Assembly: GCA_047602885.1 (NCBI GenBank)
Contig: JBLKOQ010000003.1
Location: forward strand, 464-64,463
Reading direction: 5' to 3'
From: Candidatus Woesearchaeota archaeon
GTDB taxonomy: Archaea; Nanobdellota; Nanobdellia; Woesearchaeales; WAPJ01
Length of the DNA: 64,000 nucleotides
Shown here one piece after another: positions 429 through 57,676 of this stretch (its first letter is position 1; every line of letters begins with the position of its first letter). The translations under genes were made by a program, and so were the position numbers. The notes under the pieces are model-generated. The model was not told the DNA's origin. It did no database searches and saw only the letters and a list, made by a program, of their open reading frames with translations.

Positions 429-454
429 TAGATAAAGGAATAATTGAAATATAA

Positions 455-601
455 ATCAACAACCCCGCCCTAAAGGGCGCGGTATGTTGGAGTTAATGGT
501 CAAACTACTATCGGCCTGAAGACCGAGGCATGTACCTCACCCATTAACAATCAACAACCCCCATCTAAAGACCGAGGTATTTAATCCAACTATTAACAAT
601 C
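455..601. repeat. Dispersed intergenic repeat: one full dimer copy (455-552) followed by a monomer copy (553-601).
   Basis: ATCAACAACCCCGCCCTAAAGGGCGCGGTATGTTGGAGTTAATGG...CGGCCTGAAGACCGAGG...CCATTAACAATC. Near-identical copies occur at 15345-15440 and 19190-19284. It contains the hairpin CGCCC-TAAA-GGGCG. Confidence 0.75.
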
Positions 602-612
602 AAAATATAATA

Positions 613-4732: not shown

Positions 4733-5350
4733 ATGCTAAAATCAGATATGCTCAAGATTGTAAAAGAATTACAATTTGATAAACCTGTAGTGGTTTATAA
4801 AAATGAGGTTACAGAAATAATACTATTAAGACCATCTATATTATCAAACAGGTTTAAGTATTATGATAAAAATAAGAATTTTCAAGTCTGGATTAAACAA
4901 GGAGGAAAAAAATTCAGACCAAATCATTTAAGATTATTGATTGATTTAAACTTAAGAGCAAGATGCAGAGAAGATTTAATTATAGAACTTCTTAGTGCTT
5001 TTGATAACATCTTTTATGGAAAGGACCCTGAAATCGAATTACAAAGATTATCTGAACAAAAGTTCGAACATTATCTTAATGATATTATAACAATTGGAGT
5101 TCTATCTCAAACCTTAATCTTGGAACAAGAATACGGATATCATAAGGAAAGCAAGTACAATCCTCCAAGTTTATATCTGCAGGGTTGGATTAGAGCTTTT
5201 ATTTGTAATATAAAAGAGATAGACATACTATTAGCTAGAATATGTGGAAATAATCCTCCTGAAGTTCGATTTACCTGCCAAGATGACAAAAATCATAAAA
5301 AATATAGTAAAGAAAATAAACCTATCTGGTATTTAGAGGATAATTCGTAA
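4733..5350 (+). CDS. Hypothetical protein (205 aa); positional candidate for the restriction endonuclease partner of the adjacent methyltransferases.
   Basis: Convergent with the two-MTase operon and overlapping its 3' end. No recognisable catalytic motif. Confidence 0.35.
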   Translation: MLKSDMLKIVKELQFDKPVVVYKNEVTEIILLRPSILSNRFKYYDKNKNFQVWIKQGGKKFRPNHLRLLIDLNLRARCREDLIIELLSAFDNIFYGKDPEIELQRLSEQKFEHYLNDIITIGVLSQTLILEQEYGYHKESKYNPPSLYLQGWIRAFICNIKEIDILLARICGNNPPEVRFTCQDDKNHKKYSKENKPIWYLEDNS

Positions 5351-6170
5351 TTACAACTTCATTTACTTTTCCTCTCTTGCTAGCATCAGAATTAATTGAC
5401 CTTGAGGCTTGAACTATTCTAATGTTATAATCTTTATATAGACTTTTAATAAAATCAGTATCACTATTGCTTTTCATAACCAAACAACCCTTTTTATCAA
5501 GCTCTCTAAAAATCTCAAATAGTTTAGTTTGTTCTTCTTCCATGAAAACATCTTTAGTATAGGAGGTAAAATTCTTTCCCTTAGTTATAGGATAATAAGG
5601 AGGATCGAAATATACAAAGTCTCCCTTTTCAGCCAAATTAACTATATTTTCAAAAGGCATAAGACGAATGTCTGTATTCTTTATTAACATTGAAATAGCT
5701 CTCAATTTATCTTCTTGTATAATATCCGGATTCTTGTAATCTCCCATAGGAACATTAAATTTACCTTTAGAATTTACTCTATAGAGTCCATTAAAACAAG
5801 TTTTGTTAAGATAAATAAATCTAGCGGCTTTCTCCACATCAGATAATAAGTTATGATCCTTCTCTCTTATTTTTAAGTAATAACTCTTACCTTCAGATAC
5901 ATGATAGTCTTTGTGTTGTTTCAGTTCTAGAATTAAACTCTCAACATCATCCCTAATAACTTTGTAAGCTGTAATAAGCTCATCATTAATATCTGAGATT
6001 ACTGCTTCTTTAGGACTATATTTCTCTTTAACATAAAAGAATACGGCACCACTCCCTACAAATGGCTCGAAATATCTGTTGAAACTCTTTGGAAACAAAG
6101 GTTCAAACTGGCTTAATAACTGTCCTTTGCCCCCTGCCCATTTTACGAACTTAGGAATTTTATAATCCAT
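5322..6170 (-). CDS. Dam-like (alpha-class, D12 family) DNA N6-adenine methyltransferase.
   Basis: N-terminal motif I (FVKWAGGKGQL, FEPFVGSGAVF) and motif IV (YFDPPYY), the canonical D12-class order. Confidence 0.85.
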   Translation of the reverse strand: MDYKIPKFVKWAGGKGQLLSQFEPLFPKSFNRYFEPFVGSGAVFFYVKEKYSPKEAVISDINDELITAYKVIRDDVESLILELKQHKDYHVSEGKSYYLKIREKDHNLLSDVEKAARFIYLNKTCFNGLYRVNSKGKFNVPMGDYKNPDIIQEDKLRAISMLIKNTDIRLMPFENIVNLAEKGDFVYFDPPYYPITKGKNFTSYTKDVFMEEEQTKLFEIFRELDKKGCLVMKSNSDTDFIKSLYKDYNIRIVQASRSINSDASKRGKVNEVVITNYPLNTR

Positions 6171-6194
6171 AATTCATTGGAATCCGTTCTGTAT

Positions 6195-6980
6195 TTAAAT
6201 ACTCTTTTTGATTTCAATCCTTGCTCTTTTTAAAGTAAGGTCCAAGAAATCTTTTTCTTTGTCTATACCTATATATTTCCTGTTAAGCATTTTTGCAACT
6301 ACACCGGTGGTTCCAGAGCCATTGAAAGGGTCTAGAATAACTGCGTTCTCTTTAGTTGAAGCTAATATTATTCTTTTCAACAATTCTACAGGTTTTTGTG
6401 TAGGATGCTTTCCATGAATCTTTTCACTTTGGGGAGTGAGTGGAATATGCCACAGGCTTCTCATCTGTTTTCCTTTAATACTAAATTTATCATTATACTC
6501 TTTCATTATTTCATAATTAAAATAGTGAGGGACATTCTTATTTTTCCGTGCCCAGAGTATTGTTTCATGAGCATGAGCAAAATATTTGCAACTTAGGTTA
6601 GGAGGAGCGTTTGGCTTGAACCATGTTATTTCGTTAAGCAGTTTATAATCATTCAACTGAAGAGCATAACCTACTTGATAAATATTATGCATTGTTCCCG
6701 ATATCCATATTGTGCCATGATCAGTAAGCACTCGTTTGCACGCTCTTATCCATTCTAAGGTAAACTCAAAATCATCATTTATTCCTTTTGACTTATCCCA
6801 ATCGGCTTTGTTAACAGATACCATCTTACCTGCTCTACAAGAAATACCCCCATTTGATAGAAAGTATGGAGGATCAGCAAAAATCATATCGACAGAACAT
6901 GGTTTTAGATTATTAAGTACTTTAAGACAGTCATCATTATATAGTTTAAATCTTATCGACTTATAGTACAAATCAGGCAT
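6195..6980 (-). CDS. Beta-class DNA methyltransferase (N6-adenine or N4-cytosine); second MTase of the Type II module.
   Basis: Motif IV DPPY (VDMIFADPPYF) lies N-terminal to motif I (FNGSGTTGVVAKMLNRKYIGID), the beta-class order. The ORF caller extends the start to 7154, which overlaps the divergent uvrC start. An ATG at 6980 (MPDLYYKSIRFKLYNDDC) sits 22-26 bp downstream of the TATA-like box TTTATAAT and is the more plausible start. Confidence 0.75.
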   Translation of the reverse strand: MPDLYYKSIRFKLYNDDCLKVLNNLKPCSVDMIFADPPYFLSNGGISCRAGKMVSVNKADWDKSKGINDDFEFTLEWIRACKRVLTDHGTIWISGTMHNIYQVGYALQLNDYKLLNEITWFKPNAPPNLSCKYFAHAHETILWARKNKNVPHYFNYEIMKEYNDKFSIKGKQMRSLWHIPLTPQSEKIHGKHPTQKPVELLKRIILASTKENAVILDPFNGSGTTGVVAKMLNRKYIGIDKEKDFLDLTLKRARIEIKKSI

Positions 6981-7089
6981 GCTAATAGAAGGATAATCAA
7001 ACATTATAAACTTTGCTAAATAATGTCCATAGTATTTACGATTAGTCATATTCCACACATTTTTTAAGTAACTATAGTTTCTTAATATC
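6981..7089. promoter_or_regulatory. Divergent promoter region between the beta-class MTase and uvrC.
   Basis: TATA-like boxes in both orientations: TTTATAAT on the minus strand upstream of the 6980 start, and TTTTTTAAG about 25 bp upstream of the uvrC ATG at 7090. Confidence 0.3.
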
Positions 7090-8676
7090 ATGAAAATCAA
7101 ACTCTCCAATATTCCCAAAGAGCCGGGCATATACATGTTCAAGGATGACAACAAAAAAGTAATATATGTGGGAAAAGCAAAGAACCTCAGGCAGAGAGTA
7201 TCATCATACTATAACAAGAATAATAATGCGAAGGCATTGTTCCTTACAAGACATATTCGGGATGTTGACTTTATTATAATGCCCTCAGAAAAGGACGCTC
7301 TTATACTAGAGAACAGGATGATAAAAAAGCATAATCCAAAATACAATATCAGGCTTAAGGATTCTAAGACATACTCTTATATCGCAATAACCAAAGAAGA
7401 GTATCCAAGGCTTATTAGCACGAGGAGAATACCCAAAGATACTGAGTGGTTCGGCCCTTATACTGAAGCGTTAAAAAAGAAAGAGACACTATTATTGGCA
7501 CAGAAGATATACAATATAAGGACATGCAAGAGGATGCCCAAAAAAGCATGCCTTAACTATCATATAGGGCTTTGTAGCGCTCCTTGCATCAATGCCATTA
7601 CCAAAGAAGAATACAATAATAGCGTAGTAAAAGCACTAAAATTTCTGAGAGGGGACATTAAGGAGACTCAAAAGAAGATCAGTGAAGAAATGCACTATTA
7701 TTCGAGCATGCAAAAGTATGAGATAGCACTCAAAAAGAAGAGACAGCTAGAATCTATAATGATACTGAGCGAGAAACAGAATGTAGAGCATAATATCGGC
7801 GATGACTGGGACATATGGGCGATAATGAGGGACAAGAACACCATACTAATAAGCATACTTACAGTAAGGAAGGGCATAATATCAGGAAAGAAGAACTATA
7901 ATATTGACGATAACAATGATAATGCAAGACAATTCCTAACACAATACTATACTACCAATAGAGTGCCTAAAGAGATAATAGTATCAGAAGAGTTATGGGA
8001 GGACAATGATGAGAAAGATGCGATAATAGAATATCTAAAGACTATAAAAAAACAGAGTGTCAGGATACTATTGCCTTTAAGAGGAGAGAAGAAAAGACTA
8101 TTGGACATAGCATTAAAGAACGCTATGGAAAGCACTAACATAAACAATGCTTCTTTGGAAATGCAAAAAATGCTAAACCTTGCATATCCTCCGAGGATTA
8201 TAGAATGTTTTGACATGAGCAACCTTCAGGGTACTGGAATAGTGGGTGGTATGACAAGATGGATTAACATGGCGCCTAACAAGAATGGTTATAGGAGGTT
8301 TGAGATTAGAGAGACTAAGAACAAGCCTGACGATTATAGTGCTATGAAAGAAACGGTATATAGGAGGTATAAGAGGCTAAAAGAAGAGTCATCCCAATAT
8401 CCCGACCTTATAATAGTGGATGGTGGAATAGGACAATTGAACGCTTCTATAAACGCACTATCAAGCCTAGGAATACAAATACCTATTATAGGAATAGCAA
8501 AGAAGAACGAAGAGATATACATTCCCAATACTAAAGAACCAATAAGAAGCAATCCTAACAAAGAGCCATTATTGTCTATCAGGAGGATTAGGGATGCCAC
8601 TCATAACTATGTATTATCTTATCATAGGCATAAGAGAAGGATGAATTTCAGGAAGGAAACCGGCAAGCAAACATAA
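7090..8676 (+). CDS. uvrC: Excinuclease ABC subunit C (UvrC).
   Basis: N-terminal GIY-YIG domain (GIYMFKD...VIYVGKAKNLRQRVSSY) and UvrC C-terminal nuclease/HhH region. Confidence 0.8.
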   Translation: MKIKLSNIPKEPGIYMFKDDNKKVIYVGKAKNLRQRVSSYYNKNNNAKALFLTRHIRDVDFIIMPSEKDALILENRMIKKHNPKYNIRLKDSKTYSYIAITKEEYPRLISTRRIPKDTEWFGPYTEALKKKETLLLAQKIYNIRTCKRMPKKACLNYHIGLCSAPCINAITKEEYNNSVVKALKFLRGDIKETQKKISEEMHYYSSMQKYEIALKKKRQLESIMILSEKQNVEHNIGDDWDIWAIMRDKNTILISILTVRKGIISGKKNYNIDDNNDNARQFLTQYYTTNRVPKEIIVSEELWEDNDEKDAIIEYLKTIKKQSVRILLPLRGEKKRLLDIALKNAMESTNINNASLEMQKMLNLAYPPRIIECFDMSNLQGTGIVGGMTRWINMAPNKNGYRRFEIRETKNKPDDYSAMKETVYRRYKRLKEESSQYPDLIIVDGGIGQLNASINALSSLGIQIPIIGIAKKNEEIYIPNTKEPIRSNPNKEPLLSIRRIRDATHNYVLSYHRHKRRMNFRKETGKQT

Positions 8677-15305: not shown

Positions 15306-15344
15306 TACTAAGTGACGAATATATAATGTTTTTGTTATGGATTA

Positions 15345-15440
15345 ATCAACAACCCCGCCCTAAAGGGCGCAGTATGTTGGAGTTAATGGTTAACTGCTAT
15401 CGGCCTAAAGACCGAGGTATTTAACCCTCCATTAACAATA
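15345..15440. repeat. Dispersed intergenic repeat, dimer copy.
   Basis: About 95% identical to 455-552 and 19190-19284. Confidence 0.75.
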
Positions 15441-15467
15441 AAAAAAACTTTTTATTCCATGCACACT

Positions 15468-18008
15468 CTATCTGCCGACATTAATAGTAATATTAGCCTG
15501 AGTAGACTGGCCATAACTATCAGTGGCTCTTGCTACAAAAGTATATCTTCCTTCCCTAAGCCTTGGAAGCTCAAAGTCGTAAGGAGGCTCCATTAATGAT
15601 CCCATCTGAATAAGATGAGTTCGTCTGCTCGCAAAATGCTCATAAAGCGCATAGAAGTCTACCCTTACCGATTCTCCAAGATAATCTCTTGCTTCCAGGT
15701 TAATCAGAGCGGCCGAGAACCTCGTAAATAGGTCTTGAAGCCTTGGAGTAATAAACCTTATTATAGGATGTGGTGTTTCGGGAGGCTCAGGCACATATTC
15801 TTTTACATGGAATTCTACAGCACTACTTGTAGTAGTTGCACCTTCATTGTCAGTAGCCCTAGCCCTTAGACTATATGTTCCTACATCCAATACACCTAAT
15901 GGTAAATTATACGGTGCTTCAGTATCAGTCCCTAATACTTTACCGTCCAACAAGAACTCTACCTTTACTACCTGGCCATCGCTGTCATGCGCATCAGCCA
16001 TAGCCATTATAACAACATTGTCATAATAGACTCCTCCATCCTCAGGATTGGTTACAGCTACTGTAGGAGGAACATTCTCTGCAGGTGGAGCAACCACATA
16101 CACAGTTACTGGTGTTGAAGTAGCAGTAGCGCCCCCATTATCAGTAGCCCTAGCACTAATATCATAAGAGCCTACCATTGCAGGCACCCATGATAATGAC
16201 CAAGGACTCGTAGTTCGCTCCCCAACTTTTACACCATCAGCAAAAAACTCAACCTTTACAACACTTCCGTCAGGATCACTGGCACTTGCAACTATAGTCA
16301 CACTATCACCCAATACAAACTCAGCACCCTCCACAGGACTACTAATTGAAACTACAGGGGGCTTGTTTGGAATGTCAGGAGCATCAATCTTAAAGCTTAC
16401 AGGAGCACTAGTCCTATGAGCATTATCATTGTCTACTGCTCTTGCCCTCAACTCATAAGTTCCAGGCGTCAATGACTTGAATTGTGCAGTGTAAGGCTCG
16501 TCATAGTCAGTATGCACCAAATCTCCATTCAACAAGAATTCTACACGGTCTATGTCGCCGTCAGCATCAGAAGCATCAGCCTCAGCATATACAGTATCTC
16601 CTTCATCATATGATGCACCATCACTAGGCCTAATTAGGCTCACAGTAGGCCTCTCATTAACTCTTATGCTTACAATCGAAGATGCAGTGCTAGCATCATC
16701 ATTATCATATGCTACTGCCCTGAACCTGTAAGCTCCAGGACTCAATGCTTCCTGATTGTACTGGTAAGGCGCATTAGTATCTGTATGTACAAGCTGGTCG
16801 TCCCTATAGAATTCTACTTTAACTATATTACCATCGCTGTCATGAGCATCAACGCGCACTTCTATAGGCTCATCAGACTGGAATACCTCATTATGCTGAG
16901 GCCTAGTAATAGATACTGTAGGAGGGACATTGTCTGGAGGCGGACCAGCAACATTAATACTTACTGCTGATGAAGTAGCAGTAGCGCCCCCATTATCAGT
17001 AGCCCTAGCACTAATATCATAAGAGCCTACCATTGCAGGCACCCATGATAATGACCAAGGACTCGTAGTTCGCTCCCCAACTTTTACACCATCAGCAAAA
17101 AACTCAACCTTTACAACACTTCCGTCAGGATCACTGGCACTTGCAACTATAGTCACACTATCACCCAATACAAACTCAGCTCCAGACTCAGGACTAGTTA
17201 CAGAAACAACTGGAGGCTGGTTAGGAGCGCCCGTAACAATATATCTTCCCTGGACAGGATTGCTTGGAATATGATCCTCACTATAAGCTACTGCTATTAG
17301 AGTAGTATCACCAGTAATCCTAATGGGCTCAGTGTATACCATAGCATCAATGTCGCTGGTCAATATGTCATTCCACTCCTCTAGCAATACCAGACAGGCT
17401 GCAACATCCTCATCATCCTGCTCGCCTATTTCTCCCACCCACTTATTAATATCCGTTATTATGGTCTCATTCATCACTGTAAAAACTTCTATGCAGGCAT
17501 CCACTCCCTTAGGGTCCACTTCTGACAATAGGTATGATAGAGAATCATATTTGGGGTCAGAGAATACGTTGAGAGTATCTAAACATAAGCCCACAGTTGC
17601 CATACGCAGATTCCCTACTCCCACATGAACCATAATTTCATGTGCCCATCCTTCAGAAACATCTGTGATATCACTATATATTGTACGATATACCTCATTA
17701 TATATTCGTCTACAGGAAGCATCATTGCCAAAAGCCTCCCAAAACGATTCTACTTTTCTGCCAAAATCATCAAGGTTCACTGGGCTAGTGCCGTCAAGAG
17801 TGTATAGAATAGTAGCTCCTGGCGTTGGAGTGGTAAGAGTGACATCAACATAGTTTTGTGCAAAGCTATCTGGAGCAGGGCTCATCACAGGATCTGATGC
17901 TCTACCCTTAACAACTATTTCATCGCCAAACAGTGAATCCTCTACATTACAGGATATCAGTGCAAAAGTGACTATAAACAATACTATTATTAGTTTAAGG
18001 TTTGCCAT
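15468..18008 (-). CDS. Large secreted/surface protein with tandem Ig-like (Big/PKD-like) domains; possible lipoprotein.
   Basis: Signal peptide with a lipobox-like LISC; about five repeated ~90-aa domains; two are near-identical (PPVVSxTSPESGAEFVLGDSVTIVASASDPDGSVVKVEFFADGVKVGERTTSPWSLSWVPAMVGSYDISARATDNGGATATS). Confidence 0.7.
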   Translation of the reverse strand: MANLKLIIVLFIVTFALISCNVEDSLFGDEIVVKGRASDPVMSPAPDSFAQNYVDVTLTTPTPGATILYTLDGTSPVNLDDFGRKVESFWEAFGNDASCRRIYNEVYRTIYSDITDVSEGWAHEIMVHVGVGNLRMATVGLCLDTLNVFSDPKYDSLSYLLSEVDPKGVDACIEVFTVMNETIITDINKWVGEIGEQDDEDVAACLVLLEEWNDILTSDIDAMVYTEPIRITGDTTLIAVAYSEDHIPSNPVQGRYIVTGAPNQPPVVSVTSPESGAEFVLGDSVTIVASASDPDGSVVKVEFFADGVKVGERTTSPWSLSWVPAMVGSYDISARATDNGGATATSSAVSINVAGPPPDNVPPTVSITRPQHNEVFQSDEPIEVRVDAHDSDGNIVKVEFYRDDQLVHTDTNAPYQYNQEALSPGAYRFRAVAYDNDDASTASSIVSIRVNERPTVSLIRPSDGASYDEGDTVYAEADASDADGDIDRVEFLLNGDLVHTDYDEPYTAQFKSLTPGTYELRARAVDNDNAHRTSAPVSFKIDAPDIPNKPPVVSISSPVEGAEFVLGDSVTIVASASDPDGSVVKVEFFADGVKVGERTTSPWSLSWVPAMVGSYDISARATDNGGATATSTPVTVYVVAPPAENVPPTVAVTNPEDGGVYYDNVVIMAMADAHDSDGQVVKVEFLLDGKVLGTDTEAPYNLPLGVLDVGTYSLRARATDNEGATTTSSAVEFHVKEYVPEPPETPHPIIRFITPRLQDLFTRFSAALINLEARDYLGESVRVDFYALYEHFASRRTHLIQMGSLMEPPYDFELPRLREGRYTFVARATDSYGQSTQANITINVGR
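16116..16325. repeat. Intragenic direct repeat, copy 1. It is 210 bp and identical to 16971-17180.
   Basis: Exact 210-bp duplication inside the Ig-domain gene; the duplication likely extends with mismatches to ~255 bp. Confidence 0.8.
16971..17180. repeat. Intragenic direct repeat, copy 2.
   Basis: Identical to 16116-16325. Confidence 0.8.
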
Positions 18009-19133: not shown

Positions 19134-19189
19134 ATGATACCTTCCAAAACAATATCAATACTATTTATAAACATTATTTTTTTGATGAA

Positions 19190-19284
19190 ATCAACAACCC
19201 CGCCCTAAAGGGCGCGGTATGTTATAGTTAATTGTCAAACTGCTATCAGCCTAAAGACCAAGGTATCTGCCGTCATTAACAATG
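19190..19284. repeat. Dispersed intergenic repeat, dimer copy.
   Basis: ATCAACAACCCCGCCCTAAAGGGCGCGGTATGTTATAGTTAATTGTCAAACTGCTATCAGCCTAAAGACCAAGGTAT...CATTAACAATG. Confidence 0.75.
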
Positions 19285-19419
19285 AAAAGAAACATTATCT
19301 CAAAGACTATAGTCCCGAACCAACCAAGTTTTAGGAGACCATACTTGAAATGGCATTGCACCTAAATAAGAATAATGATAAGTAATAAGATTTATATTGT
19401 GGTATAAGAAACATTGGTT

Positions 19420-24092: not shown

Positions 24093-25502
24093 TCAGCCCA
24101 GACTCCCTTCCATTTCCAATGCTATTAGCCTGTTTAGCTCTACAGCATACTCTAAGGGAAGCTCTTTTATCACAGGCTCTATAAATCCTGATACTATCAT
24201 CTGGACGGCCTGCTCTTCTCCTATGCCTCGGGACATGAGATAGAATATTTGTTCGTCGCTAATCCTTCCTACAGTGGCCTCGTGACTAATAGTAGCAGTA
24301 TTGTTCTGTATGTCCATTACAGGATAAGTGTTTGATTCTGAATGATTGTCCATCATCAGAGCATCACACTCCACATTTAGTGTTGCATTCTTTGCATTCT
24401 TAGCCACTTTTACTATGCCCCTATAACTTGTTATTCCTCCTTCCATGCTAATGCTCTTGCTCGTAATAGTAGCACTGGTATTGGGGGCCAGCATGAACAC
24501 TTTGGCGCCTACATCCTGATTTTGCATTTTTGATGCGAATGCTATGCTGATATGATCAGATTTTGAACCTCTCCCTCTAAGAATACTGCTAGGATATAGC
24601 ATTGTTACTCCACTCCCAAGATTTCCGCCCACCCATTCTATAATGCCATTATCGTCTACGAGCGCGCTTTTAGTGTTAAGATTATAAGTATTCCTAGACC
24701 AGTTCTCTACACTGCTATATCTTGCTCTCGCGTTCTTCTTGACAAATACTTCTACGCAGCCAGCGTGTATTGATGAAGCGTTGTATTGTGGCGCTGAGCA
24801 TCCCTCAATATACTGCAGTTTTGCATTTTCCTCTACTATTATAAGGGTGTGCTCAAACTGTCCCATCTTAAGGCTGTTCATCCTAAAATATGCTTGTAAT
24901 GGTAGATGAACTTCAACTCCTTTAGGAACAAATATGAATGTCCCTCCACTCCATACCGCATAGTGAAGTGCAGAATACTTATGGAGGGTGTAAGGAACGC
25001 ATTTAGAAAAATATTCTTTTACTAGGCCTTCGTGTTCTTTTAATGCCACATCCATATCCAAGAATATTACTCCCTTGTCTTCCCATTCTTTTTTTAGGGA
25101 GTGATATACTACTTGTGATTCAAACTGAGCTCCTACTCCTGCAAGGGACTTCTTTTCGGCCTCAGGTATTCCAAGCTTGTCATAAACACTTTTTATTTCT
25201 TGAGGAACATCATCCCAGCTATTGGCGTTACTCTTGGCATCAGGCTTAACAAAATAGGTAATATTATCCAAATCGAGTCCTACAAGGCTTGGACCCCATT
25301 CAGGATTAGGCTTGTTTATATAGAATTTTAATGCTTTTAACCTTAAGTTGAGCATCCATTCAGGCTCATCCTTGTCTTTGGAGATCATTCTTACAATATC
25401 CTCAGTAAGCCCTTCTATAGCCCTATACTTATGAGGCCTTAATAATGGTGCGTCAAGCACCTTTTGGAGTTCCAACGATTCTGTAGACTGCATCCAAACC
25501 AC
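24093..25502 (-). CDS. sufB: Fe-S cluster assembly scaffold SufB.
   Basis: 469 aa. ISHEATVGRISDEQIFYLMSRGIGEEQA and conserved core. A TATA-like box (TTTTATAC) lies about 30 bp upstream on the minus strand. Confidence 0.9.
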   Translation of the reverse strand: MVWMQSTESLELQKVLDAPLLRPHKYRAIEGLTEDIVRMISKDKDEPEWMLNLRLKALKFYINKPNPEWGPSLVGLDLDNITYFVKPDAKSNANSWDDVPQEIKSVYDKLGIPEAEKKSLAGVGAQFESQVVYHSLKKEWEDKGVIFLDMDVALKEHEGLVKEYFSKCVPYTLHKYSALHYAVWSGGTFIFVPKGVEVHLPLQAYFRMNSLKMGQFEHTLIIVEENAKLQYIEGCSAPQYNASSIHAGCVEVFVKKNARARYSSVENWSRNTYNLNTKSALVDDNGIIEWVGGNLGSGVTMLYPSSILRGRGSKSDHISIAFASKMQNQDVGAKVFMLAPNTSATITSKSISMEGGITSYRGIVKVAKNAKNATLNVECDALMMDNHSESNTYPVMDIQNNTATISHEATVGRISDEQIFYLMSRGIGEEQAVQMIVSGFIEPVIKELPLEYAVELNRLIALEMEGSLG

Positions 25503-26043
25503 CAGTTAACAATTGTTAATTAGTTTTGGGCTTTAGTATAAAAAGGTTATTGTATTATGGTCAAATTTGTATCAACACAATAAGATACTGCGCAAACCTT
25601 CTATCTCAAATCTCTACATCTTGTACAGACCAAATACTATTAAACCAGTAGTATTATCATGACAGAATGAGCAGAGTATTAATGCTGGACTTAGAAGGAG
25701 TATTAATAGCAAAAGCAATTCCAGGGCCTGGAAGAGATATCGCTGTAAGACCATACGCGCATAGGTTTACGAAAGAAATACCCCCTCTGTTTGACCGAGC
25801 ATATCTAAATACTTGTGTTCTAAAGGATAGAGATTGGACTTGAAAGGTTCGCTCGTTGCGATTCTCTCTCATAATTTTTTCCCTCAGCTCTCAATCACTA
25901 AGTACGTGAAGGAGGATAAAACTTTCCTTATATACGATGACAAAAGAAAAAATGTTTGAAAGCTTTGTATAATAGCGGTTACAAAGGACTTAATCCATAT
26001 ACAATCTCTTATAAAAAATTACTGTTCTAAATGTAAAAAAAAA

Positions 26044-28035
26044 TTAGCGGCGAGTATTATCTTTATTTTCTTTCTTAACAAACAATACTACTGATAAAAA
26101 AATGAGCGTGGCACTAATAATCATCTTTGCAATGCCTAGACCAAATATATGATGGATATCTCTATTGTTAGTTATATTCCTAAGAATTATTATGTCAAAA
26201 TAACCAGATGGACTGTTAACAATAAGTACATAAAAAGTAATCGGAATACGTTTTTCTTCATGATGCGAATAGGATATAAGCGGTATTCTTGCATGACCCT
26301 CTTCATGAGTTGAGATATTTCCCTGTATTAATCGAATGGTTCGGAAATTTATTGTAATCCATCTTATTCTGCTTTTACCAACAGGATCACCTTTTATATT
26401 CTTCAAGTACACATCAGTCCAATATCCTACATCAACCCAACCATGCTTAGAACCAATATCATATTCAGGGTCAAAAAAGGAGACATTATGATGATCAAAG
26501 GTCGTATTTATTAGCCTTACGTAGCCAGACGGACTAGATACTAATAAATCAAAATCATTAGATAATTTACTGTTAATCGTACTATCAGTTATTTCGCAAA
26601 TCTGCGAGTCACTTAAATATGGAGTTATCAGCAAATAAAATCCTCTCGATTGTTTTCCTAGAGTATTAATATTAACCTTACTCAATGAGCATTCAAACCT
26701 CAAATATGAAACGACCATTCCCTCAGAACGGTCTCCAATAGTGCTTATGTTAACCTCATCCAAGTTTAAAGACAATGTACTGGTTGCATTAATACCTGAA
26801 GAAATATTACCTACAGTAATTATACTACTACGCGAAAGACTAAAAGATTTATGTCTGCCGCTCGGGATCATAATCCCACTGGACGACACTCCGGATGTGT
26901 GTATATTAGTATCTTCTACTCTCCAACTTCCCGTAGCTCTTATCCCCTCTGAAAAATCACCAAAGGTAGTCATATTCACGTTCTTAATACTGCCTGCACC
27001 AAGAGCAGCTACAGAATAATTTCCATATGTAATGACAGTAACATCATGCATTTCAAATGAAGAATCTGAAAGAGCTATTCCAGTGCTTCTATTTCCCATT
27101 GTTTTTATACGACTGTCCTGAAGGCTAAGGAAATAGCTAAGAAAAGAAGAATAGCCAGTTGCAGAATCCCCAAGAGTTACAATCTCAGTTCTTTTAGCAA
27201 ATATGCCTCTAGAAACCGATGCAATAGAAAAACCCGCAGAATGTTTACCAGTAGTATGAACAGTGATATCAGTCAAAGAATGGTTACGCGAAATTTGTAT
27301 GTGTACTCCAGTTGCAGAATCACCAGAGGTGTTAACTCTCAAGTTGCTCATGTTCCAAAAACGCGTGTAACCAGTATGAATGCCATAACTATAACTACTT
27401 GCAGTACTTATATTTAGATTGGTTAATGAAACATTATCAACATAAAAAATTATACTATTAGGCTCACTTGGACCAAATACACCTCTTTGAGGACTGCTAT
27501 TTTTTCCAAGACCATATATTGATGGACAAGGATTACTAATAGAACATATATTAGGATTGCTTTGTATAACATTGCAGTTGATTACACTCACATTGTTAAT
27601 ATTTAATGATTGAGACCATATAAGTACTCCATAACCTTCTTCATCTGAACTATAATCAATCGTGTGCCCTTTACAGTCCAAGACGACATCACTTACATTT
27701 ATTTTAAAACAAGTCCCGGAAGCATTTACATTGCTACTGAGAAAGTAAGATCCAGGCCTGCTAAGAACCTGACATGTACTTATATCATTAATAAATCCTA
27801 TATGCTCATCATCATATAACTCACCAATAGCATAATTAACCAAACCATCAAATGAAACCAAATCATTATCAAAATTATACTCAAGAAAACTCAAATCATC
27901 ATCCAAACCAAAAATAAAGCCAGAACAAATAAGAACCATAACACCAAAAAAGATACTAAAAATTAACCACCGATTACCCATACACAACAATTCCAATAAT
28001 GCTATAAAAACCTTTCTGAAACAAGTAAAACCCAC
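26044..28035 (-). CDS. Surface protein with right-handed parallel beta-helix (PbH1-type) repeats; N-terminal TM/signal anchor and C-terminal TM anchor.
   Basis: Periodic ~22-aa repeats (xxTxGxxSxGIxxS), N-glycosylation-like NxS/T sites, and the terminal hydrophobic segment IISATLIFLSVVLFV followed by KKENK. Confidence 0.6.
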   Translation of the reverse strand: MGFTCFRKVFIALLELLCMGNRWLIFSIFFGVMVLICSGFIFGLDDDLSFLEYNFDNDLVSFDGLVNYAIGELYDDEHIGFINDISTCQVLSRPGSYFLSSNVNASGTCFKINVSDVVLDCKGHTIDYSSDEEGYGVLIWSQSLNINNVSVINCNVIQSNPNICSISNPCPSIYGLGKNSSPQRGVFGPSEPNSIIFYVDNVSLTNLNISTASSYSYGIHTGYTRFWNMSNLRVNTSGDSATGVHIQISRNHSLTDITVHTTGKHSAGFSIASVSRGIFAKRTEIVTLGDSATGYSSFLSYFLSLQDSRIKTMGNRSTGIALSDSSFEMHDVTVITYGNYSVAALGAGSIKNVNMTTFGDFSEGIRATGSWRVEDTNIHTSGVSSSGIMIPSGRHKSFSLSRSSIITVGNISSGINATSTLSLNLDEVNISTIGDRSEGMVVSYLRFECSLSKVNINTLGKQSRGFYLLITPYLSDSQICEITDSTINSKLSNDFDLLVSSPSGYVRLINTTFDHHNVSFFDPEYDIGSKHGWVDVGYWTDVYLKNIKGDPVGKSRIRWITINFRTIRLIQGNISTHEEGHARIPLISYSHHEEKRIPITFYVLIVNSPSGYFDIIILRNITNNRDIHHIFGLGIAKMIISATLIFLSVVLFVKKENKDNTRR

Positions 28036-28075
28036 TATACAGTAACAATAAGAGAAACGAAAAGTTCTAACTGAT

Positions 28076-28118
28076 GAACCTCTCCACCCTAAAATCCGAG
28101 GTATTCAGGATATAATAA
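28076..28118. repeat. Dispersed repeat, monomer-form copy (variant 3' end).
   Basis: CCACCCTAAAATCCGAGGTATTCAGGATATAATAA shares CCTAAA..CCGAGGTAT with the other copies and AGGTATTCAGGATATAATAA with the 29538-29625 copy. Confidence 0.55.
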
Positions 28119-28165
28119 GGCAAAAATAAATAGAAGCCCATATAAAAGGAGTCTTCTAAATTAAT

Positions 28166-28900
28166 ATGATGGTTCGTAAAAAATTCTGGGAGGAATGGAA
28201 AGAAAAGACCTTATGGGAAGAGAGAGCCATAAAACATGCGATAATAGCCAAGAGAATAATACTACACAGTATTCCTAAAGATGAGATTCATAGTATATAC
28301 ATTAAAGGGAGCATGGCAAGAAGGGAAATGAACGAGAAAAGTGATGTAGATACACTAACAATAGTAAAGCATTCTGGTATGTTAAGTAAACTCAATAATT
28401 TACATGCTATTCATGGAAAGAAGTATAAGATGGATATAGACTTTAGCGGATACTCTTTATGGGAATTACGACATAACAAGAAAAGCAATCAAGGAAAAGC
28501 CGATAGACCTTCACCAGCAAGAACAATGCATCATATCCAAACATATAAGTTAATATATGGAGAGGCATTGAAGAATAAGACATTTAAGAGCACAACCAGT
28601 AAAAAGAGATTGAATGAGATGACTAAAGTATTCGAAGATAAGTTCCTACCGAATTATGAAAATGGATTATTCAGTTTCAGCGATATCATAAAACAAACAT
28701 TCTGGCTCGTAGAAAATGAACAATCATCTTTAGGCAATAGTCCATTTGGTAGTTGGAAAGAATTGAAAGATAGCATACAAGACAAAAAGCACATAATACA
28801 TGATGCTTACAACCTAAGAATAAATCATACAAAAGATAAGGCTATAAGAACAAGATTTATTCGAAAGCTGAAACAGTACATAGAAAGACTAAAAGATTAA
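28166..28900 (+). CDS. Nucleotidyltransferase (Pol-beta superfamily; KNTase/ANT-like two-domain architecture).
   Basis: Minimal NTase motif GSMARREMNEKSDVDTLTIV and a helical C-terminal domain. Confidence 0.6.
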   Translation: MMVRKKFWEEWKEKTLWEERAIKHAIIAKRIILHSIPKDEIHSIYIKGSMARREMNEKSDVDTLTIVKHSGMLSKLNNLHAIHGKKYKMDIDFSGYSLWELRHNKKSNQGKADRPSPARTMHHIQTYKLIYGEALKNKTFKSTTSKKRLNEMTKVFEDKFLPNYENGLFSFSDIIKQTFWLVENEQSSLGNSPFGSWKELKDSIQDKKHIIHDAYNLRINHTKDKAIRTRFIRKLKQYIERLKD

Positions 28901-29033
28901 CTTACCTCAAAAAAGTAATCCATACTAGTAGCAATGAATTATTGGAAATAAGGGTTGTGTTACAATTAAAAATCATTAAACATTGTTATCAGTAAAATCC
29001 AAAAAGCGTATTCCAGGATAAACCGACTCTATC

Positions 29034-29393
29034 TCATGACTTATCATGCACACAGTTGCTTATTACAGACTGATAAACCTTGATGACATTATCGTAGTGA
29101 GGAACAAAATCTGTTGCTCTTTTACTACCAACTACTGCTAACTGAAGCATTCCTTCTAGCGTAGCTTTTCTTCCACGACCAAAAGAGTTCAGGGATCCTC
29201 TTGGCATTAAAGGAACACTATCATTGTTTGTGTTTGTAATCGTTTCATGAAAATACAATTGATGAGCAATGTCCAGCCATTGGTCTTCTGTTAAACCATT
29301 ATAAGGTTCTTTTGTTGCCATATAACTGTATATTGCCCTTATAATATAATCCGGTAAGATTATTTCTTCTGGTAGTTTTTCCATAAAACCCAT
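29034..29393 (-). CDS. Hypothetical protein (119 aa).
   Basis: ORF only. Confidence 0.4.
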   Translation of the reverse strand: MGFMEKLPEEIILPDYIIRAIYSYMATKEPYNGLTEDQWLDIAHQLYFHETITNTNNDSVPLMPRGSLNSFGRGRKATLEGMLQLAVVGSKRATDFVPHYDNVIKVYQSVISNCVHDKS

Positions 29394-29537
29394 AGTTATA
29401 TGGGCATATTAAATAAATTATTATTAGGATAAAGACTATTAGTCACCAAAATGTAAAGAAATGACAGTGTTTGAATAATTTCAATCCTACTTATTATACA
29501 GGAATAACATCTAAACGCAATGATTCGAAAAAAAAAA

Positions 29538-29625
29538 CACAAACCCTCCCTAAAAGACATTATATGTTAGAGTTAATGGTAAAACTGCTATCGGCCTAAA
29601 GGCCAAGGTATTCAGGATATAATAA
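29538..29625. repeat. Dispersed repeat, degenerate dimer copy.
   Basis: CCCTCCCTAAAAGACATTATATGTTAGAGTTAATGGTAAAACTGCTATCGGCCTAAAGGCCAAGGTATTCAGGATATAATAAAA. Confidence 0.6.
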
Positions 29626-29708
29626 AAAAGAATACTCTAATCACCAACATACAAATAGCTGACCTTTGCAACTATATAATAGTAAATATCATTATATTTA
29701 TAAATAGA

Positions 29709-30344
29709 TTGTATTTCCATAGCATAATGAAAGGAAAGCTTACACAAAAGGAAGTCGAATTGTTATCCCATAGGAACCTAAGACTGTTGTCACCAGACTG
29801 GCAGGAGATTAGGACAGGATATTATCCTAACACTGCATTACTGGATGCAACGAATGTACCTGCAGAATACTTGGGATACCATGTGGGCAGTTCAAACCAG
29901 ACTGTACTTACTGCAACCAAGCCTTTAGAGGAACACCCCGAAATATCATTAAAAAACGTATTCTTCTCCCTAAGAAAAGATGCTCTTGAACACTATCTTA
30001 ATATGAGTCTTGAAGAGTTTTTAGTGTCAGACAATGATGAGATGGTATATTTTGTAGATTATAAGACAGTAAAAGAGGGGCGCGTACAAACATCATATTC
30101 TCCTGCAGTATTGTTTCAAGACAAAATTATGGCAAAAGAAGAAGCTTATGAGAATAATCTAGTAGGACTAGTAGAGTTAATGCAAGAATATGATGACTGG
30201 ATAGAAAATTATACTATAAGATACAATCCTAACAGATATGAAAGATATAACAATAGGAAGAATATAAATTATATCCTGGTAAAAAGTCCCATAAAAGTAA
30301 TACTAGGTTTAAACCCACTCATACCTATAAGATTTACCTCCTGA
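29709..30344 (+). CDS. Hypothetical protein (211 aa).
   Basis: ORF only. Confidence 0.4.
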   Translation: MYFHSIMKGKLTQKEVELLSHRNLRLLSPDWQEIRTGYYPNTALLDATNVPAEYLGYHVGSSNQTVLTATKPLEEHPEISLKNVFFSLRKDALEHYLNMSLEEFLVSDNDEMVYFVDYKTVKEGRVQTSYSPAVLFQDKIMAKEEAYENNLVGLVELMQEYDDWIENYTIRYNPNRYERYNNRKNINYILVKSPIKVILGLNPLIPIRFTS

Positions 30345-30956
30345 TTTAGAGTGCTTTGCAATCCCAAGATACTCCCCTTCTTCATTAAATACTATTCTAT
30401 AAGGACCACGACCACTACCCGCTAATCTAACATCATAAGTTATGATATCCTTATCATGTAGTTGCGGAGCCGGAAAGCCACCATGCCTATGGTATCTGGA
30501 AAGCAGTTCTTTGGCATCAGGACGGTCTAGGTTTTTTTCAATATATTCTGCCGCTGCAACGTCCAGTAGCATTCCTTCTACATCATTTTTATCACGCATT
30601 CTTCTTAGGATACGCCTGCCTTTACCTCCCATAACCTTATTACGAGCATACTCAAGTATTGCATTCTTAACTTCTGGAAGCATAGCTCTTCTATGATGAC
30701 GGTCTGAGAGGTGATTAATGCCTGTACCAGTACGTTTCATAATCTTTTCTAGACCGCCAATATCAGAGCCTGCAGTATTAACAACAAAATACATTGAGAG
30801 CAGTATTAGCAATATACCCACAAAGAAGACAGGAGAAACTGTAGAAGTCCCCGGGCCAATCGCAGCTCCCGTAATGCTCGGAGCACCGCCATAAGACAAT
30901 AATAGTCCTGTAATGAGCAATGCTAATCCAAGAACCCTATAATAAAACCGTCTCAT
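30309..30956 (-). CDS. Hypothetical membrane-anchored protein (two N-terminal TM helices, then a basic soluble domain with a RelE/ParE-like C-terminal motif).
   Basis: GPYRIVFNEEGEYLGIAKH near the C-terminus resembles the yRivY...e..v.vlrigHR element of RelE/ParE-fold proteins. Local GC is higher than the surroundings. Confidence 0.4.
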   Translation of the reverse strand: MRRFYYRVLGLALLITGLLLSYGGAPSITGAAIGPGTSTVSPVFFVGILLILLSMYFVVNTAGSDIGGLEKIMKRTGTGINHLSDRHHRRAMLPEVKNAILEYARNKVMGGKGRRILRRMRDKNDVEGMLLDVAAAEYIEKNLDRPDAKELLSRYHRHGGFPAPQLHDKDIITYDVRLAGSGRGPYRIVFNEEGEYLGIAKHSKSGGKSYRYEWV

Positions 30957-31070
30957 AGAAAACTCTTAAAGAGACTTGTGTTTAATAATCTTTTTGTTAT
31001 AAAATACTGCAAAACAATAATAATAAGGAACAACAAATACCTCATTGCATAAACTCTAATTATATATTAC

Positions 31071-31427
31071 TCAATCATCATATTTATCGATCATTACCAA
31101 TGGCTTCTGATACACACATAGGCTAACACCATGTCTGCTGAGTCTCTTTTCTGACACTACAAGTTCTCTTAACTGCTCTTGGTCTAGTACGGCAGGCTTT
31201 ATTATTCCGCATAGCTCTTTGGATCTTATCTTATTATTACTGCCTTGGAGTTTATATGTCATAACATAATGTCCCAACTTCTTTTCGAGCATTATCCTCT
31301 CATTGTTTACTGCATTATTGGGCAGTACAAACTCTGAACAGTCCAGATCATAGTATATACTATCAGGAATCTCCATAAGAAAAGGGATGGTCTTACGCAA
31401 CTCATCCAAAAAAATACGCTCATCCAT
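31071..31427 (-). CDS. Hypothetical protein (118 aa).
   Basis: ORF only. Confidence 0.4.
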   Translation of the reverse strand: MDERIFLDELRKTIPFLMEIPDSIYYDLDCSEFVLPNNAVNNERIMLEKKLGHYVMTYKLQGSNNKIRSKELCGIIKPAVLDQEQLRELVVSEKRLSRHGVSLCVYQKPLVMIDKYDD

Positions 31428-31491
31428 AATACTGAATAGCTTATACTCTTTAATAGGTTAATGAAAAAACAATAGAATAAAGGAAAAAAGT

Positions 31492-32025
31492 TTAGTCTGA
31501 AGGCTGTAAAACGGGGAAAAGCTTTGATACCAGTCCTCTCTCCCTGACTAATTCCCAGGCTCTCTTATCTCCCCTATTGAGCTCAGTCAGATTATTGTAC
31601 CCTGAGTCTGCAACGTGTATTACTATGTCTTCATCGCTTATATACAGGCTCGGATCAACACCCAACTGTCCTAGAAAACCATATAGTCCTGGAGCCTTGG
31701 TTCTCATATGGAGCCTTTCGGATGGAGATAAGTCTTCTGCTAATACTGAAGCATCAACATCGGTTACTAACGGGACAAACTCACGCTCAGCATAAGTCCT
31801 GTATCTTCCATCGAGATCAAGCTGTTTCGTTCTTGTCTCAACCATCTCTCCTAGTTTTAGGCCTTTATGCTCATATTCTGTTACAACTGTCTGGCCAAGG
31901 TCTATTAGGGGCTCATAGTCTTTCCTTCCTTCAAAGTATGCTTGCATGTCTCTTTTTGCCATGACTGTAGAATAATATAACCCTTTATAAACATTTCTAT
32001 AATTTACTACTTTTAAGTAGCACAT
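31492..32025 (-). CDS. Hypothetical protein (177 aa; GC-richer than the flanks).
   Basis: ORF only. The probable true start is the internal MAKRDMQAYF. Confidence 0.4.
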   Translation of the reverse strand: MCYLKVVNYRNVYKGLYYSTVMAKRDMQAYFEGRKDYEPLIDLGQTVVTEYEHKGLKLGEMVETRTKQLDLDGRYRTYAEREFVPLVTDVDASVLAEDLSPSERLHMRTKAPGLYGFLGQLGVDPSLYISDEDIVIHVADSGYNNLTELNRGDKRAWELVRERGLVSKLFPVLQPSD

Positions 32026-32029
32026 ATTA

Positions 32030-32731
32030 TTATTTGTAAGTCAAATCGGTGTAGACTTTAGGACTTTCCATACGCAATACCATCTTTGCAGGGCAGTCTA
32101 CTATTCCAAGCCTTGGATTACTAAAAGCATTTAATGCGTCCCTTTTAGAACTCCCCATAAATATTAGGAAAGGGATTGCTCCTGCCACTAATTCAACACT
32201 GGCAGTCATCCTGTCCTTGGGAGGCTTGGGACTGTCATCAAGTATTAAGAACTCCTTACCTTTAATAGTAAGAGCTGGATGGTTAGGATAGAGCCCTGCT
32301 ATATGACCATCCTCTCCCGAAGATAATAATACAATATCAAACATTCCACCATAATCATCAAGCACTTTCTTATAATTGCTCGCACCAAAATCATCCTTAT
32401 CTTTATTAACCATAAAAGGATGAAGATTACCTTTAGGAAGAATATTATTATCAACCAAATCTTTAGCAAAAGAATCATAAGAGAGCTTATAATTGCTCTG
32501 AGGATCATTAATACTAACTAGTCTTTCATCAACCATGAATATATGGATATTCTTCCACGCGTCATCTCTTGAATGCCTAAAGTATGATAGTACTTGATTA
32601 ATGCTCCTGCCACCGCATAGCGCTAATGTTACTATATCCTTATTATCCAACAGCTTTTTTGCAGTGTCAATAATATCCTGACCTATGATACTTCCAAGAT
32701 TATCCCTATCTTTTTCGACAACAATGTTCAT
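32030..32731 (-). CDS. 6-phosphogluconolactonase / glucosamine-6-phosphate deaminase family protein.
   Basis: TLALCGGRS...IHIFMVDERLV matches the Pgl/NagB laLsGGsTP...vhvf.gDER signature. Confidence 0.6.
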   Translation of the reverse strand: MNIVVEKDRDNLGSIIGQDIIDTAKKLLDNKDIVTLALCGGRSINQVLSYFRHSRDDAWKNIHIFMVDERLVSINDPQSNYKLSYDSFAKDLVDNNILPKGNLHPFMVNKDKDDFGASNYKKVLDDYGGMFDIVLLSSGEDGHIAGLYPNHPALTIKGKEFLILDDSPKPPKDRMTASVELVAGAIPFLIFMGSSKRDALNAFSNPRLGIVDCPAKMVLRMESPKVYTDLTYK

Positions 32732-54479: not shown

Positions 54480-54818
54480 TTAACTTAAGTTACTAGCACC
54501 CCAAATTATAACTAAACCTGTAATTATTGATGAAGCTATCTTCCCTGCAGTGTAATAACTTTCAAACAGTTTAAATTTGAATGTATAGCTTATAATTCCA
54601 ACTACACCTAATAATGTCACAATGTTTGTGTATAAAATAATAATAGGAGGTACAATCTCATAAATACCAAAGAATGTTACAAGTGCAATAGCATTAGCAA
54701 ACATTGTAACTCTTCCCGTATAATGTTTCTCAACTAAATAACCAATTAGAATCAAAGACAAAGGTGCTAACAAATGAAAAAACGAATAAGGTAATAAATC
54801 CAGAAGCCAAATATTCAT
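54480..54818 (-). CDS. Hypothetical small membrane protein (112 aa).
   Basis: ORF with 3-4 TM helices; overlaps the hsdS stop by 4 bp. Confidence 0.4.
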   Translation of the reverse strand: MNIWLLDLLPYSFFHLLAPLSLILIGYLVEKHYTGRVTMFANAIALVTFFGIYEIVPPIIILYTNIVTLLGVVGIISYTFKFKLFESYYTAGKIASSIITGLVIIWGASNLS

Positions 54819-57674: not shown

Positions 57675-57676
57675 TC

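Follow-up and report, generated by a model that had tools for sequence, protein, structure and literature searches.

Short intergenic hairpin repeats in a Woesearchaeota genome are probably PATEs, transposase-less derivatives of IS200/IS605 elements

A family of short repeats between the genes of a Candidatus Woesearchaeota (DPANN) MAG most probably consists of PATEs, that is, transposase-less derivatives of IS200/IS605 elements that keep the left-end and right-end subterminal hairpins; we put the probability of this reading at about 0.85. What is observed is the anatomy of the copies and the homology between their hairpins and the ends of elements that carry a transposase in other archaea. 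The DNA analyzed, referred to here as the window, is a 64-kb stretch of the MAG with a G+C content of ∼36%. It contains six repeat copies at five loci, all in the same orientation when written on the plus strand and all intergenic, and pattern, repeat, and profile searches confirmed the positions at which the initial annotation had placed repeats. The half-unit pattern CCTAAAGRSCGMGGTAT, searched with up to three mismatches, gave nine matches in the window against 0.43 expected (none of 100 shuffles reached nine), and all nine were on the plus strand. Repeat finding recovered four copies of ∼95 nt (family D2) and shorter copies of the 3' half (D4), and a profile search with filters off returned the six elements and no other credible match on either strand of the window. 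The starts had been set one base too late, the conserved AATCAAC beginning at 454, 15344, and 19189. The features are listed below with the minus strand as the active strand.

454 to 548, minus strand: full-length putative PATE copy, 95 nt (pattern, repeat, and profile searches; fold; boundaries by alignment)
549 to 597, minus strand: putative terminal-only ("monomer") PATE, 49 nt, with the RE' tail (AATCAACAACCCC on the plus strand) kept
598 to 602, minus strand: TGATT pentanucleotide (AATCA on the plus strand) directly 5' of copy 549-597 on the active strand, the putative target or left cleavage motif
15344 to 15436, minus strand: full-length putative PATE copy, 93 nt, between two minus-strand genes
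19189 to 19280, minus strand: full-length putative PATE copy, 92 nt, in the divergent intergenic region upstream of a cyclophilin gene
28073 to 28118, minus strand: degenerate short copy of a candidate second subfamily (profile search E 0.13; D18 repeat)
29538 to 29625, minus strand: decayed full-length copy, 71-74% identical to the canonical copies

The elements measure 49 to 95 nt and lie wholly between ORFs, leaving no room for a transposase gene. The neighboring genes are convergent at 454-597, tandem at 15344, and divergent at 19189, 28073, and 29538, in agreement with the variety of intergenic settings described earlier. The three canonical dimers share 84-88% pairwise identity, and on the basis of this divergence there is no sign of recent activity. 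The copy at 29538 has lost the RE'-side hairpin and keeps its LE' hairpin (TCGGCC-TAAA-GGCCAA) whole, and at its 3' end it has a variant sequence, GGTATTCAGGATATAATAA, which is common to the copy at 28073 and was recovered by repeat finding as family D18. The copy at 28073 starts on the plus strand with GATGAACCTCTCC, a sequence similar to the AATGACTTCCTCC terminus found in the IS200 elements of loci L028 and L018 described below, and the two variant copies appear from their sequences to belong to, or to be chimeric with, a second subfamily.

On the plus strand, each full copy contains the hairpins CGCCC-TAAA-GGGCG and TCGGCC-TRAA-GACCGA, each followed by GGTAT, so that the conserved unit is a stem closed by CC-TRAA-GG and then GGTAT. 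The proposal that the dimer comprises two related half-units thus held, the halves being two hairpin units in direct orientation, and we read each dimer as an IS200-type element reduced to the hairpins of its right and left ends, with the core missing. On the minus strand, copy 454-548 starts at its left boundary with GTTAATGG, continues through the LE' hairpin TCGGTC-TTCA-GGCCGA, and ends as CCATTAAC-TC-CAACATACC-G-CGCCC-TTTA-GGGCG-GGGTTGTTGATT at its right boundary. An extra stem, GTTAATGG/CCATTAAC, encloses the second (LE') hairpin, the left terminus pairing with an internal segment. When folded as single-stranded DNA, the three canonical copies were more stable on the minus than on the plus strand (-21.4 versus -16.7, -18.7 versus -16.4, and -14.6 versus -11.5 kcal/mol, the first pair being that of copy 454-548, with z -4.3), and RNA folding also favored the minus strand for all three (z -4 to -5). 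The minus strand folds better because the substitutions in the second hairpin are G-T or G-U pairs on that strand and C-A mismatches on the other, an effect seen most clearly in the LE' hairpin of copy 19189. In the predicted folds, two adjacent helices have both putative cleavage sites next to each other at their base.

The monomers were described earlier as precise internal deletions, and this was borne out: the 5' end of the first half is joined to the second half. In copy 549-597, which lies head-to-tail with copy 454-548, the RE' tail runs into the LE' half at a junction within the hairpin loop region, and the hairpin is now unpaired. We read this 49-nt copy as a core-deleted version of the longer element. 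The deletion fits the published origin of 52-bp terminal-only PATEs, which arise by repeat-mediated loss of the core between two palindromes (Dyall-Smith et al. 2011, PMC3119063). The copies with damaged hairpins (549-597 and 29538) are probably dead.

A two-hairpin element with the same ends (AATCAAMAAC...AACAAT) was present in five other Woesearchaeota genomes. Full copies of this W type were found in L032, L034, L035, L052, and L030, some with extra internal hairpins, and L014 carried a 50-nt terminal-only copy with an intact hairpin. The outer stem covaries, being GTTAATGG/CCATTAAC in the window, GTTAAAACGYGG/CCRCGTTTTAAC in L032, L034, and L035, and TGTTGC/GCAACA in L052. The hairpin pairs were direct in every locus examined except for one palindromic variant in L030.

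The element ends were compared over 10 W-type copies from six genomes, read on the tnpA-sense strand (the minus strand of the window). The right end was TTGATT in all 10, and the left flank was TGATT in seven and TTATT or TCATT in the remainder, a rule that held even in the GC-rich flanks of L052. Within the window, the left flanks of copies 15344 and 19189 are TTATT (15437-15441) and TCATT (19281-19285), respectively, the former copy lying just past a T8 tract after the Big_7 surface-protein gene. Right flanks were unrelated to left flanks, so none of the 10 copies is bounded by a target-site duplication, a feature for which a check had been suggested. The termini thus follow the pattern TNATT, boundary, GTT...TTGATT, boundary, with GTTAATGG leading to a hairpin at the left and a hairpin leading to GGGGTTGTTGATT at the right. 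The left TNATT is provisionally taken as flank and not as part of the element. On the minus strand, 19-22 nt separate the left boundary from the left hairpin and 8-12 nt separate the right hairpin from the right boundary; the corresponding IS608 linkers are 19 and 10 nt, and the left one is always the longer across the family (PMC3597680), as it is here. The right "linker" differs from that of IS608 in being partly base-paired (CAACA/TGTTG), and no IS608-like pairing between guide and cleavage site was derivable from the element sequences.

The link to IS200/IS605 comes from relatives that carry a transposase. In L028 (Iainarchaeota), L018, and L054, two direct hairpins ∼540 nt apart bracket an ORF of 140-160 aa. 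The ORFs of L028 and L018 matched the Pfam family Y1_Tnp ("Transposase IS200 like") with E 6e-29; that of L054 was identified by tblastn only, with 60-63% identity to the other two. Against the NCBIfam equivalog transpos_IS200, the L028 and L018 proteins scored 101-107 bits and all those scored gave 76-107 bits (cut-off 55). Database homologues named IS200/IS605 family transposase came from Diapherotrites, Woesearchaeota, Pacearchaeota, Thermoplasmatales, and Methanocellales; the Woesearchaeota and Pacearchaeota examples of tnpA have TTTA-loop hairpins before and after the gene, as does a tnpA from Chloroflexi. The gene lies on the TTTA-loop strand in L028, L018, L054, L063, L068, and L040, and in every case the tnpA strand shows a TTTA or TTCA loop and a hairpin preceded by ATACC, for which the equivalent in the window is the minus strand. 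The transposase-carrying elements obey the same rule at their ends, with TTATT, TGATT, or TAATT at the left and ...GTCATT at the right. The search for an autonomous element with the exact W-type termini yielded none; the additional relatives L063, L068, L069, and L070 have TTTA-loop hairpins and different tails. In Iainarchaeum NC_groundwater_1669, elements of ∼100 nt consist of two fused IS ends, AATGACATCCTCC-hairpin-GGTATCCC...hairpin-GGTATTCAACC...CAATAA, and show how transposase-less derivatives arise.

The hairpin itself is widespread. Species-representative genomes were scanned with the degenerate second-half hairpin TCRGCCTRAAGRCCRAGGYAT, which gave 49 loci, 33 archaeal and 16 bacterial. 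The archaeal loci came from Woesearchaeota, Iainarchaeota, Nanoarchaeota, Methanosarcinales, unclassified archaea, and a bin labelled "Thaumarchaeota". Many genomes held several matches, and many matches lay <100 nt from the end of a contig, as multicopy repeats typically do. Most of the 16 bacterial matches look like chance matches in GC-rich coding DNA; genuine hairpin units were present in three (Chloroflexi L040, Patescibacteria L060, and Methylococcaceae L036). A second hairpin was usually found near the matched one, with a different stem in the same frame, NNNNCC-TRAA-GGNNNN-GGYAT, and the hairpin CC-TCGGCC-TRAA-GGCCGA-GG-TAT is near-identical across Woesearchaeota, Iainarchaeota, Nanoarchaeota, Methanosarcinales, and some bacteria. 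Among 28 distinct units, which had been selected for having a stem, both partners vary in five of the eight stem pairs, pairing holds in 90% of cells, and the covariation score was reached in 0 of 500 shuffles; when the stem requirement was dropped and scan-picked units were excluded, a stem was present at 25 of 26 CCTRAAG..RGYAT sites. The exact first hairpin (CCCGCCCTAAAGGGCGCNGTAT) had no match in the species-representative genomes, a set that lacks the window MAG, the central region of the element had none in JGI metagenome contigs, and the second hairpin had none in IMG/VR.

Several of the scanned loci hold further arrangements of these hairpins. In the Chloroflexi MAG (L040:130-950), the frame CCNNNNCC-TGAA-GGNNNNGG-CAT brackets a Y1 transposase gene, and the same frame forms tandem units in the Patescibacteria (L060:5440-5560) and Methylococcaceae (L036:1-80) MAGs; its presence in these three suggests that the IS clade crosses the domain boundary. 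A different two-domain element of ∼170 nt occurs in L023, L024, L027, L033, L037, L043, L044, L045, L049, and L061 (for example, L024:7480-7660, minus strand). Its hosts are Methanosarcinales, Nanoarchaeota, and an unclassified archaeon, in which it has multiple copies, often located at the ends of contigs; it starts with ATAACRAAAA, ends with TTTTCAATAA, and has the identical hairpin ATCC-TCGGCC-TRAA-GGCCGA-GGTATTAC inside long outer stems. Judged by its sequence, this element probably represents a further PATE family within the same IS clade.

For the window copies, mobilization in trans, a single-stranded DNA route, and a link to replication are what we infer. By analogy with IS608 and ISDra2, a Y1/HUH TnpA encoded elsewhere would recognize the two similar hairpins on one strand, here the minus strand of the window, and would cut 5' of the left hairpin after TNATT and 3' of the right hairpin after TTGATT. 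The element would then be released as a single-stranded circle and inserted 3' of a different TNATT where the DNA is single-stranded, as it typically is in the lagging-strand template. The predicted circle junction would join ...TTGTTGATT directly to GTTAATGG..., and the junction within 454-597, where ...TTGATT meets GTTAATGG..., has the same form. Forms of ∼49 nt would arise by deletion between the two hairpin repeats. Such a mechanism would lead to direct related hairpins, to the lack of terminal inverted repeats and target duplications, to a one-sided pentanucleotide, to AT-rich intergenic sites, and to a single orientation. Mobilization in trans is put forward only by analogy because tblastn and Pfam scans of the 64-kb window revealed no Y1 transposase (tnpA) or TnpB gene.

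The head-to-tail pair at 454-597 could be explained by the right end: because its own TGATT equals the target, a new copy would land after the old one, and the TGATT end of copy 549-597 (549-553) is indeed the target adjoining copy 454-548. The same identity may account for an arrangement in L032:230-360, where a PATE copy has the 15-nt sequence GATGATTGTTTGATT, resembling its own right tail, on both sides; this repeat suggests insertion beside the remnant of an older copy and not a target duplication. TTATT targets, such as that at 15437-15441, may be supplied by the T-rich tracts of archaeal terminators.

Insertions of the IS200/IS605 family are biased in orientation toward the lagging-strand template. 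All six copies in the window have a single orientation (p ∼0.06 over five independent loci), which would fit this bias by analogy, and the majority of genes on the minus strand agrees. That majority is 43 of the 61 window genes, on the strand that is also the elements' active one. GC skew was +0.125 in plus-strand genes, -0.163 in minus-strand genes, and +0.03 in intergenic DNA; it tracks gene orientation and was rejected as an indicator of the replication strand.

The initial annotation had left the choice among a MITE-like or REP-like element, small RNAs, and protein-binding sites; its idea of a mobile repeat was right in spirit, whereas neither the classical MITE nor the REP comparison fared well. 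An unlikely, more ambitious form of the PATE reading would make the repeats minimal derivatives of a distinct IS200 clade that spreads horizontally and is self-targeting (its right end being TGATT), retained in a REP-like manner in streamlined DPANN genomes as functional intergenic modules (terminator, insulator, or protein-binding sites) and not as debris. One hairpin type common to insertion sequences of several archaeal phyla does point to horizontal spread.

We consider it improbable that the repeats are REP/RAYT-like, that is, host-maintained hairpins spread by a single domesticated Y1 transposase and serving a cellular role such as transcript stabilization, termination, or protein binding. 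The conserved oligonucleotide ATACC followed by a palindrome resembles REP, the copies are old (as their identities indicate), strictly intergenic, and present in several Woesearchaeota species, and the transposases give weak matches to the REP-associated model REP_Tyr_transpos. These matches are below threshold, however (33-48 bits against a cut-off of 80), in proteins that pass the IS200 equivalog. The transposase gene has a left hairpin on one side and a right hairpin on the other, the arrangement of IS200, and occurs in multiple copies per genome (L018/L022), whereas REPs cluster as inverted pairs around a single-copy RAYT. The hairpin pairs here are direct and not inverted, and the defined element ends with their one-sided target motif fit transposition. 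The repeats do share with the REP/BIME (REPIN) and RAYT systems of Proteobacteria the short intergenic palindromes, the adjacent conserved oligonucleotide, and a Y1/HUH link, but they differ in their IS-like ends and in the failure of the related transposases against the RAYT model.

Still less probable is a family of small structured RNA genes or cis-elements, in which sRNAs, terminators, or leaders would be made from the minus strand and the stem-loops would be functional. The strong strand-asymmetric folding, with G-U pairs only on the minus strand, the covarying stems, and the position of several copies just downstream of a gene or in promoter regions are what such a role would predict, but asymmetry and covariation are equally expected of hairpins recognized in single-stranded DNA. 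The gene context is inconsistent, the same hairpins bracket a transposase gene elsewhere, and decayed copies with broken stems persist. At the gathering score, Rfam 15 matched neither the window nor the elements of 18 related loci, and relaxing the threshold to E up to 10 for the region 400-650 gave only chance-level matches. An RNA role is thus unnecessary to the explanation.

A classical MITE, which has terminal inverted repeats and is moved in cut-and-paste fashion by a DDE transposase, would also be small, dispersed between genes in multiple copies, and without coding capacity, yet this reading can hardly be right and we regard it as refuted, for the first 12 nt (AATCAACAACCC) do not match the reverse complement of the last 12 nt (the end at GTTAATGG), the internal repeats are direct, and duplications flank 0 of 10 copies. 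Several other identities were dropped when the sequences were read. These were C/D-box or H/ACA guide RNAs, hammerhead or twister ribozymes, integron attC sites, CRISPR-like arrays, ORB or origin repeats, IS110 bridge RNAs, and TnpB omega-RNAs. The boxes or motif order that they call for are absent, integrase, Cas, TnpB, and IS110 genes are missing from the vicinity, and an omega-RNA would not fit into 95 nt.

As PATEs, the window repeats belong to a class that is already known, here found in a small DPANN (Woesearchaeota) archaeal genome; the finding is not surprising and leaves the understanding of the family unchanged. Among the IS families of archaea, IS200/IS605 is the most widespread (PMC13343696). 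Published PATEs lack inverted terminal repeats and target duplications and have similar near-terminal palindromes, a short targeting oligonucleotide, and IS605-type ends (PMC3119063), and PATE-like elements mobilized in trans have been reported in Geobacillus stearothermophilus (Meers et al. 2023, PMC10055086). The window elements resemble those of Haloquadratum walsbyi (e.g., HqIRS46, PMC3119063) and the Geobacillus PATE-like elements (PMC10055086) in having no transposase, no inverted terminal repeats or target duplications, and direct near-terminal palindromes, and also in the one-sided targeting oligonucleotide, the terminal-only forms of ∼50 bp, and the ends homologous to IS200/IS605. They differ in their host, a DPANN woesearchaeote of ∼36% GC and not a haloarchaeon or Firmicute, and in their autonomous relatives, which carry tnpA only (IS200 type); the relatives of haloarchaeal PATEs are mostly IS1341-type elements with tnpB. 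Their length of ∼95 nt leaves too little room for an omega-RNA; their left terminus pairs internally (GTTAATGG/CCATTAAC), enclosing the left hairpin; and their target and right end are the same pentanucleotide, TGATT.

With IS200/IS605 elements proper (IS608, ISDra2, and IS200), the copies share subterminal imperfect palindromes on one strand, the lack of target-site duplications, and apparently also an orientation bias and insertion 3' of a tetra- or pentanucleotide, and in the relatives L028, L018, L054, L063, and L068 a Y1/HUH transposase lies between homologous hairpins. Unlike those elements, the window copies have neither tnpA nor tnpB, and their activity and strand specificity are predicted from sequence. 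Conservation of the hairpin loop with its closing pairs (active-strand CC-TTTA-GG) and of the ATACC on the 5' side is unusually high from one archaeal phylum to another. For annotation, the repeats are best labelled as IS200/IS605-derived PATEs and not as sRNA genes or regulatory motifs. If so, even small DPANN genomes retain peel-and-paste elements along with derivatives that have lost the transposase, the conserved ends offer a handle to find the cognate transposase, and in closed Woesearchaeota genomes the orientation of the copies may mark the direction of replication.

The sole orthologous comparison bearing on mobility was with L010, a relative with 86% GyrA identity. The intergenic region orthologous to the 15344 site is 76 nt and contains no hairpin in L010, compared with 162 nt in the window, but the flanks have diverged too far for an empty site to be placed at single-base resolution. 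The relative locus retrieved through GyrA (L001/L002) held no copy, and the FGase-like protein, used as a query for the relative's region orthologous to 0-20 kb, returned only paralogues of ∼23% identity. Local gene content also differs: L010:7577-9999 has genes for an MgtE transporter and a glycosyltransferase between the 275-aa gene and cyclophilin, whereas the corresponding window segment (19134-19413) has the PATE copy 19189-19280 alone between them. Copy 19189 is the site of a break in two independent Logan assemblies of the same organism. Their contigs (L012:1-31 and L013:1-31, equal to window 19194-19224; SRR32456880 and SRR32456869) start at a 30-nt stretch common to copies 454 and 19189, a de Bruijn-graph break caused by the repeat that shows multicopy sequence only. 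The remainder of the genome could be drawn from these two runs. PATE repeats would thus explain assembly breaks in metagenomic contigs of this lineage.

The variant copies at 28.1 and 29.6 kb had been said to flank an anomalous gene cluster, which is loosely right, except that both sit inside it: the segment of ∼6.5 kb at 25503-32029, between SufB (24093-25502) and a 6-phosphogluconolactonase/GlcN6P-isomerase-like gene (32030-32731), encodes a 663-aa protein without a Pfam match, a nucleotidyltransferase, a barnase-like ribonuclease, and small unknown ORFs in addition to the two variants. In a related genome that lacks the segment, the SufB and isomerase-like genes are 66 nt apart, and the segment looks like a strain-specific island. 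Elsewhere in the window, a 300-nt repeat (16038-16337 and 16893-17192; 855-nt spacing, 91% identity) lies inside the gene for the 846-aa Big_7/PKD surface protein (15468-18008) and is, by its sequence, an apparent recent internal domain duplication. A UvrD-like helicase is divided between two consecutive ORFs (60814-62271 and 62322-63347), its UvrD-helicase domain stopping in the first and resuming at profile position 234 in the second, for which a frameshift, a pseudogene, or an assembly error is possible. The regions listed as 54815-60022 and 5322-7154 contain a complete type I restriction-modification operon (HsdS, HsdM, and HsdR) and two further DNA methyltransferases (one of the D12 class, N6-adenine, and one N4/N6), which together make a heavy defense load for a small genome.
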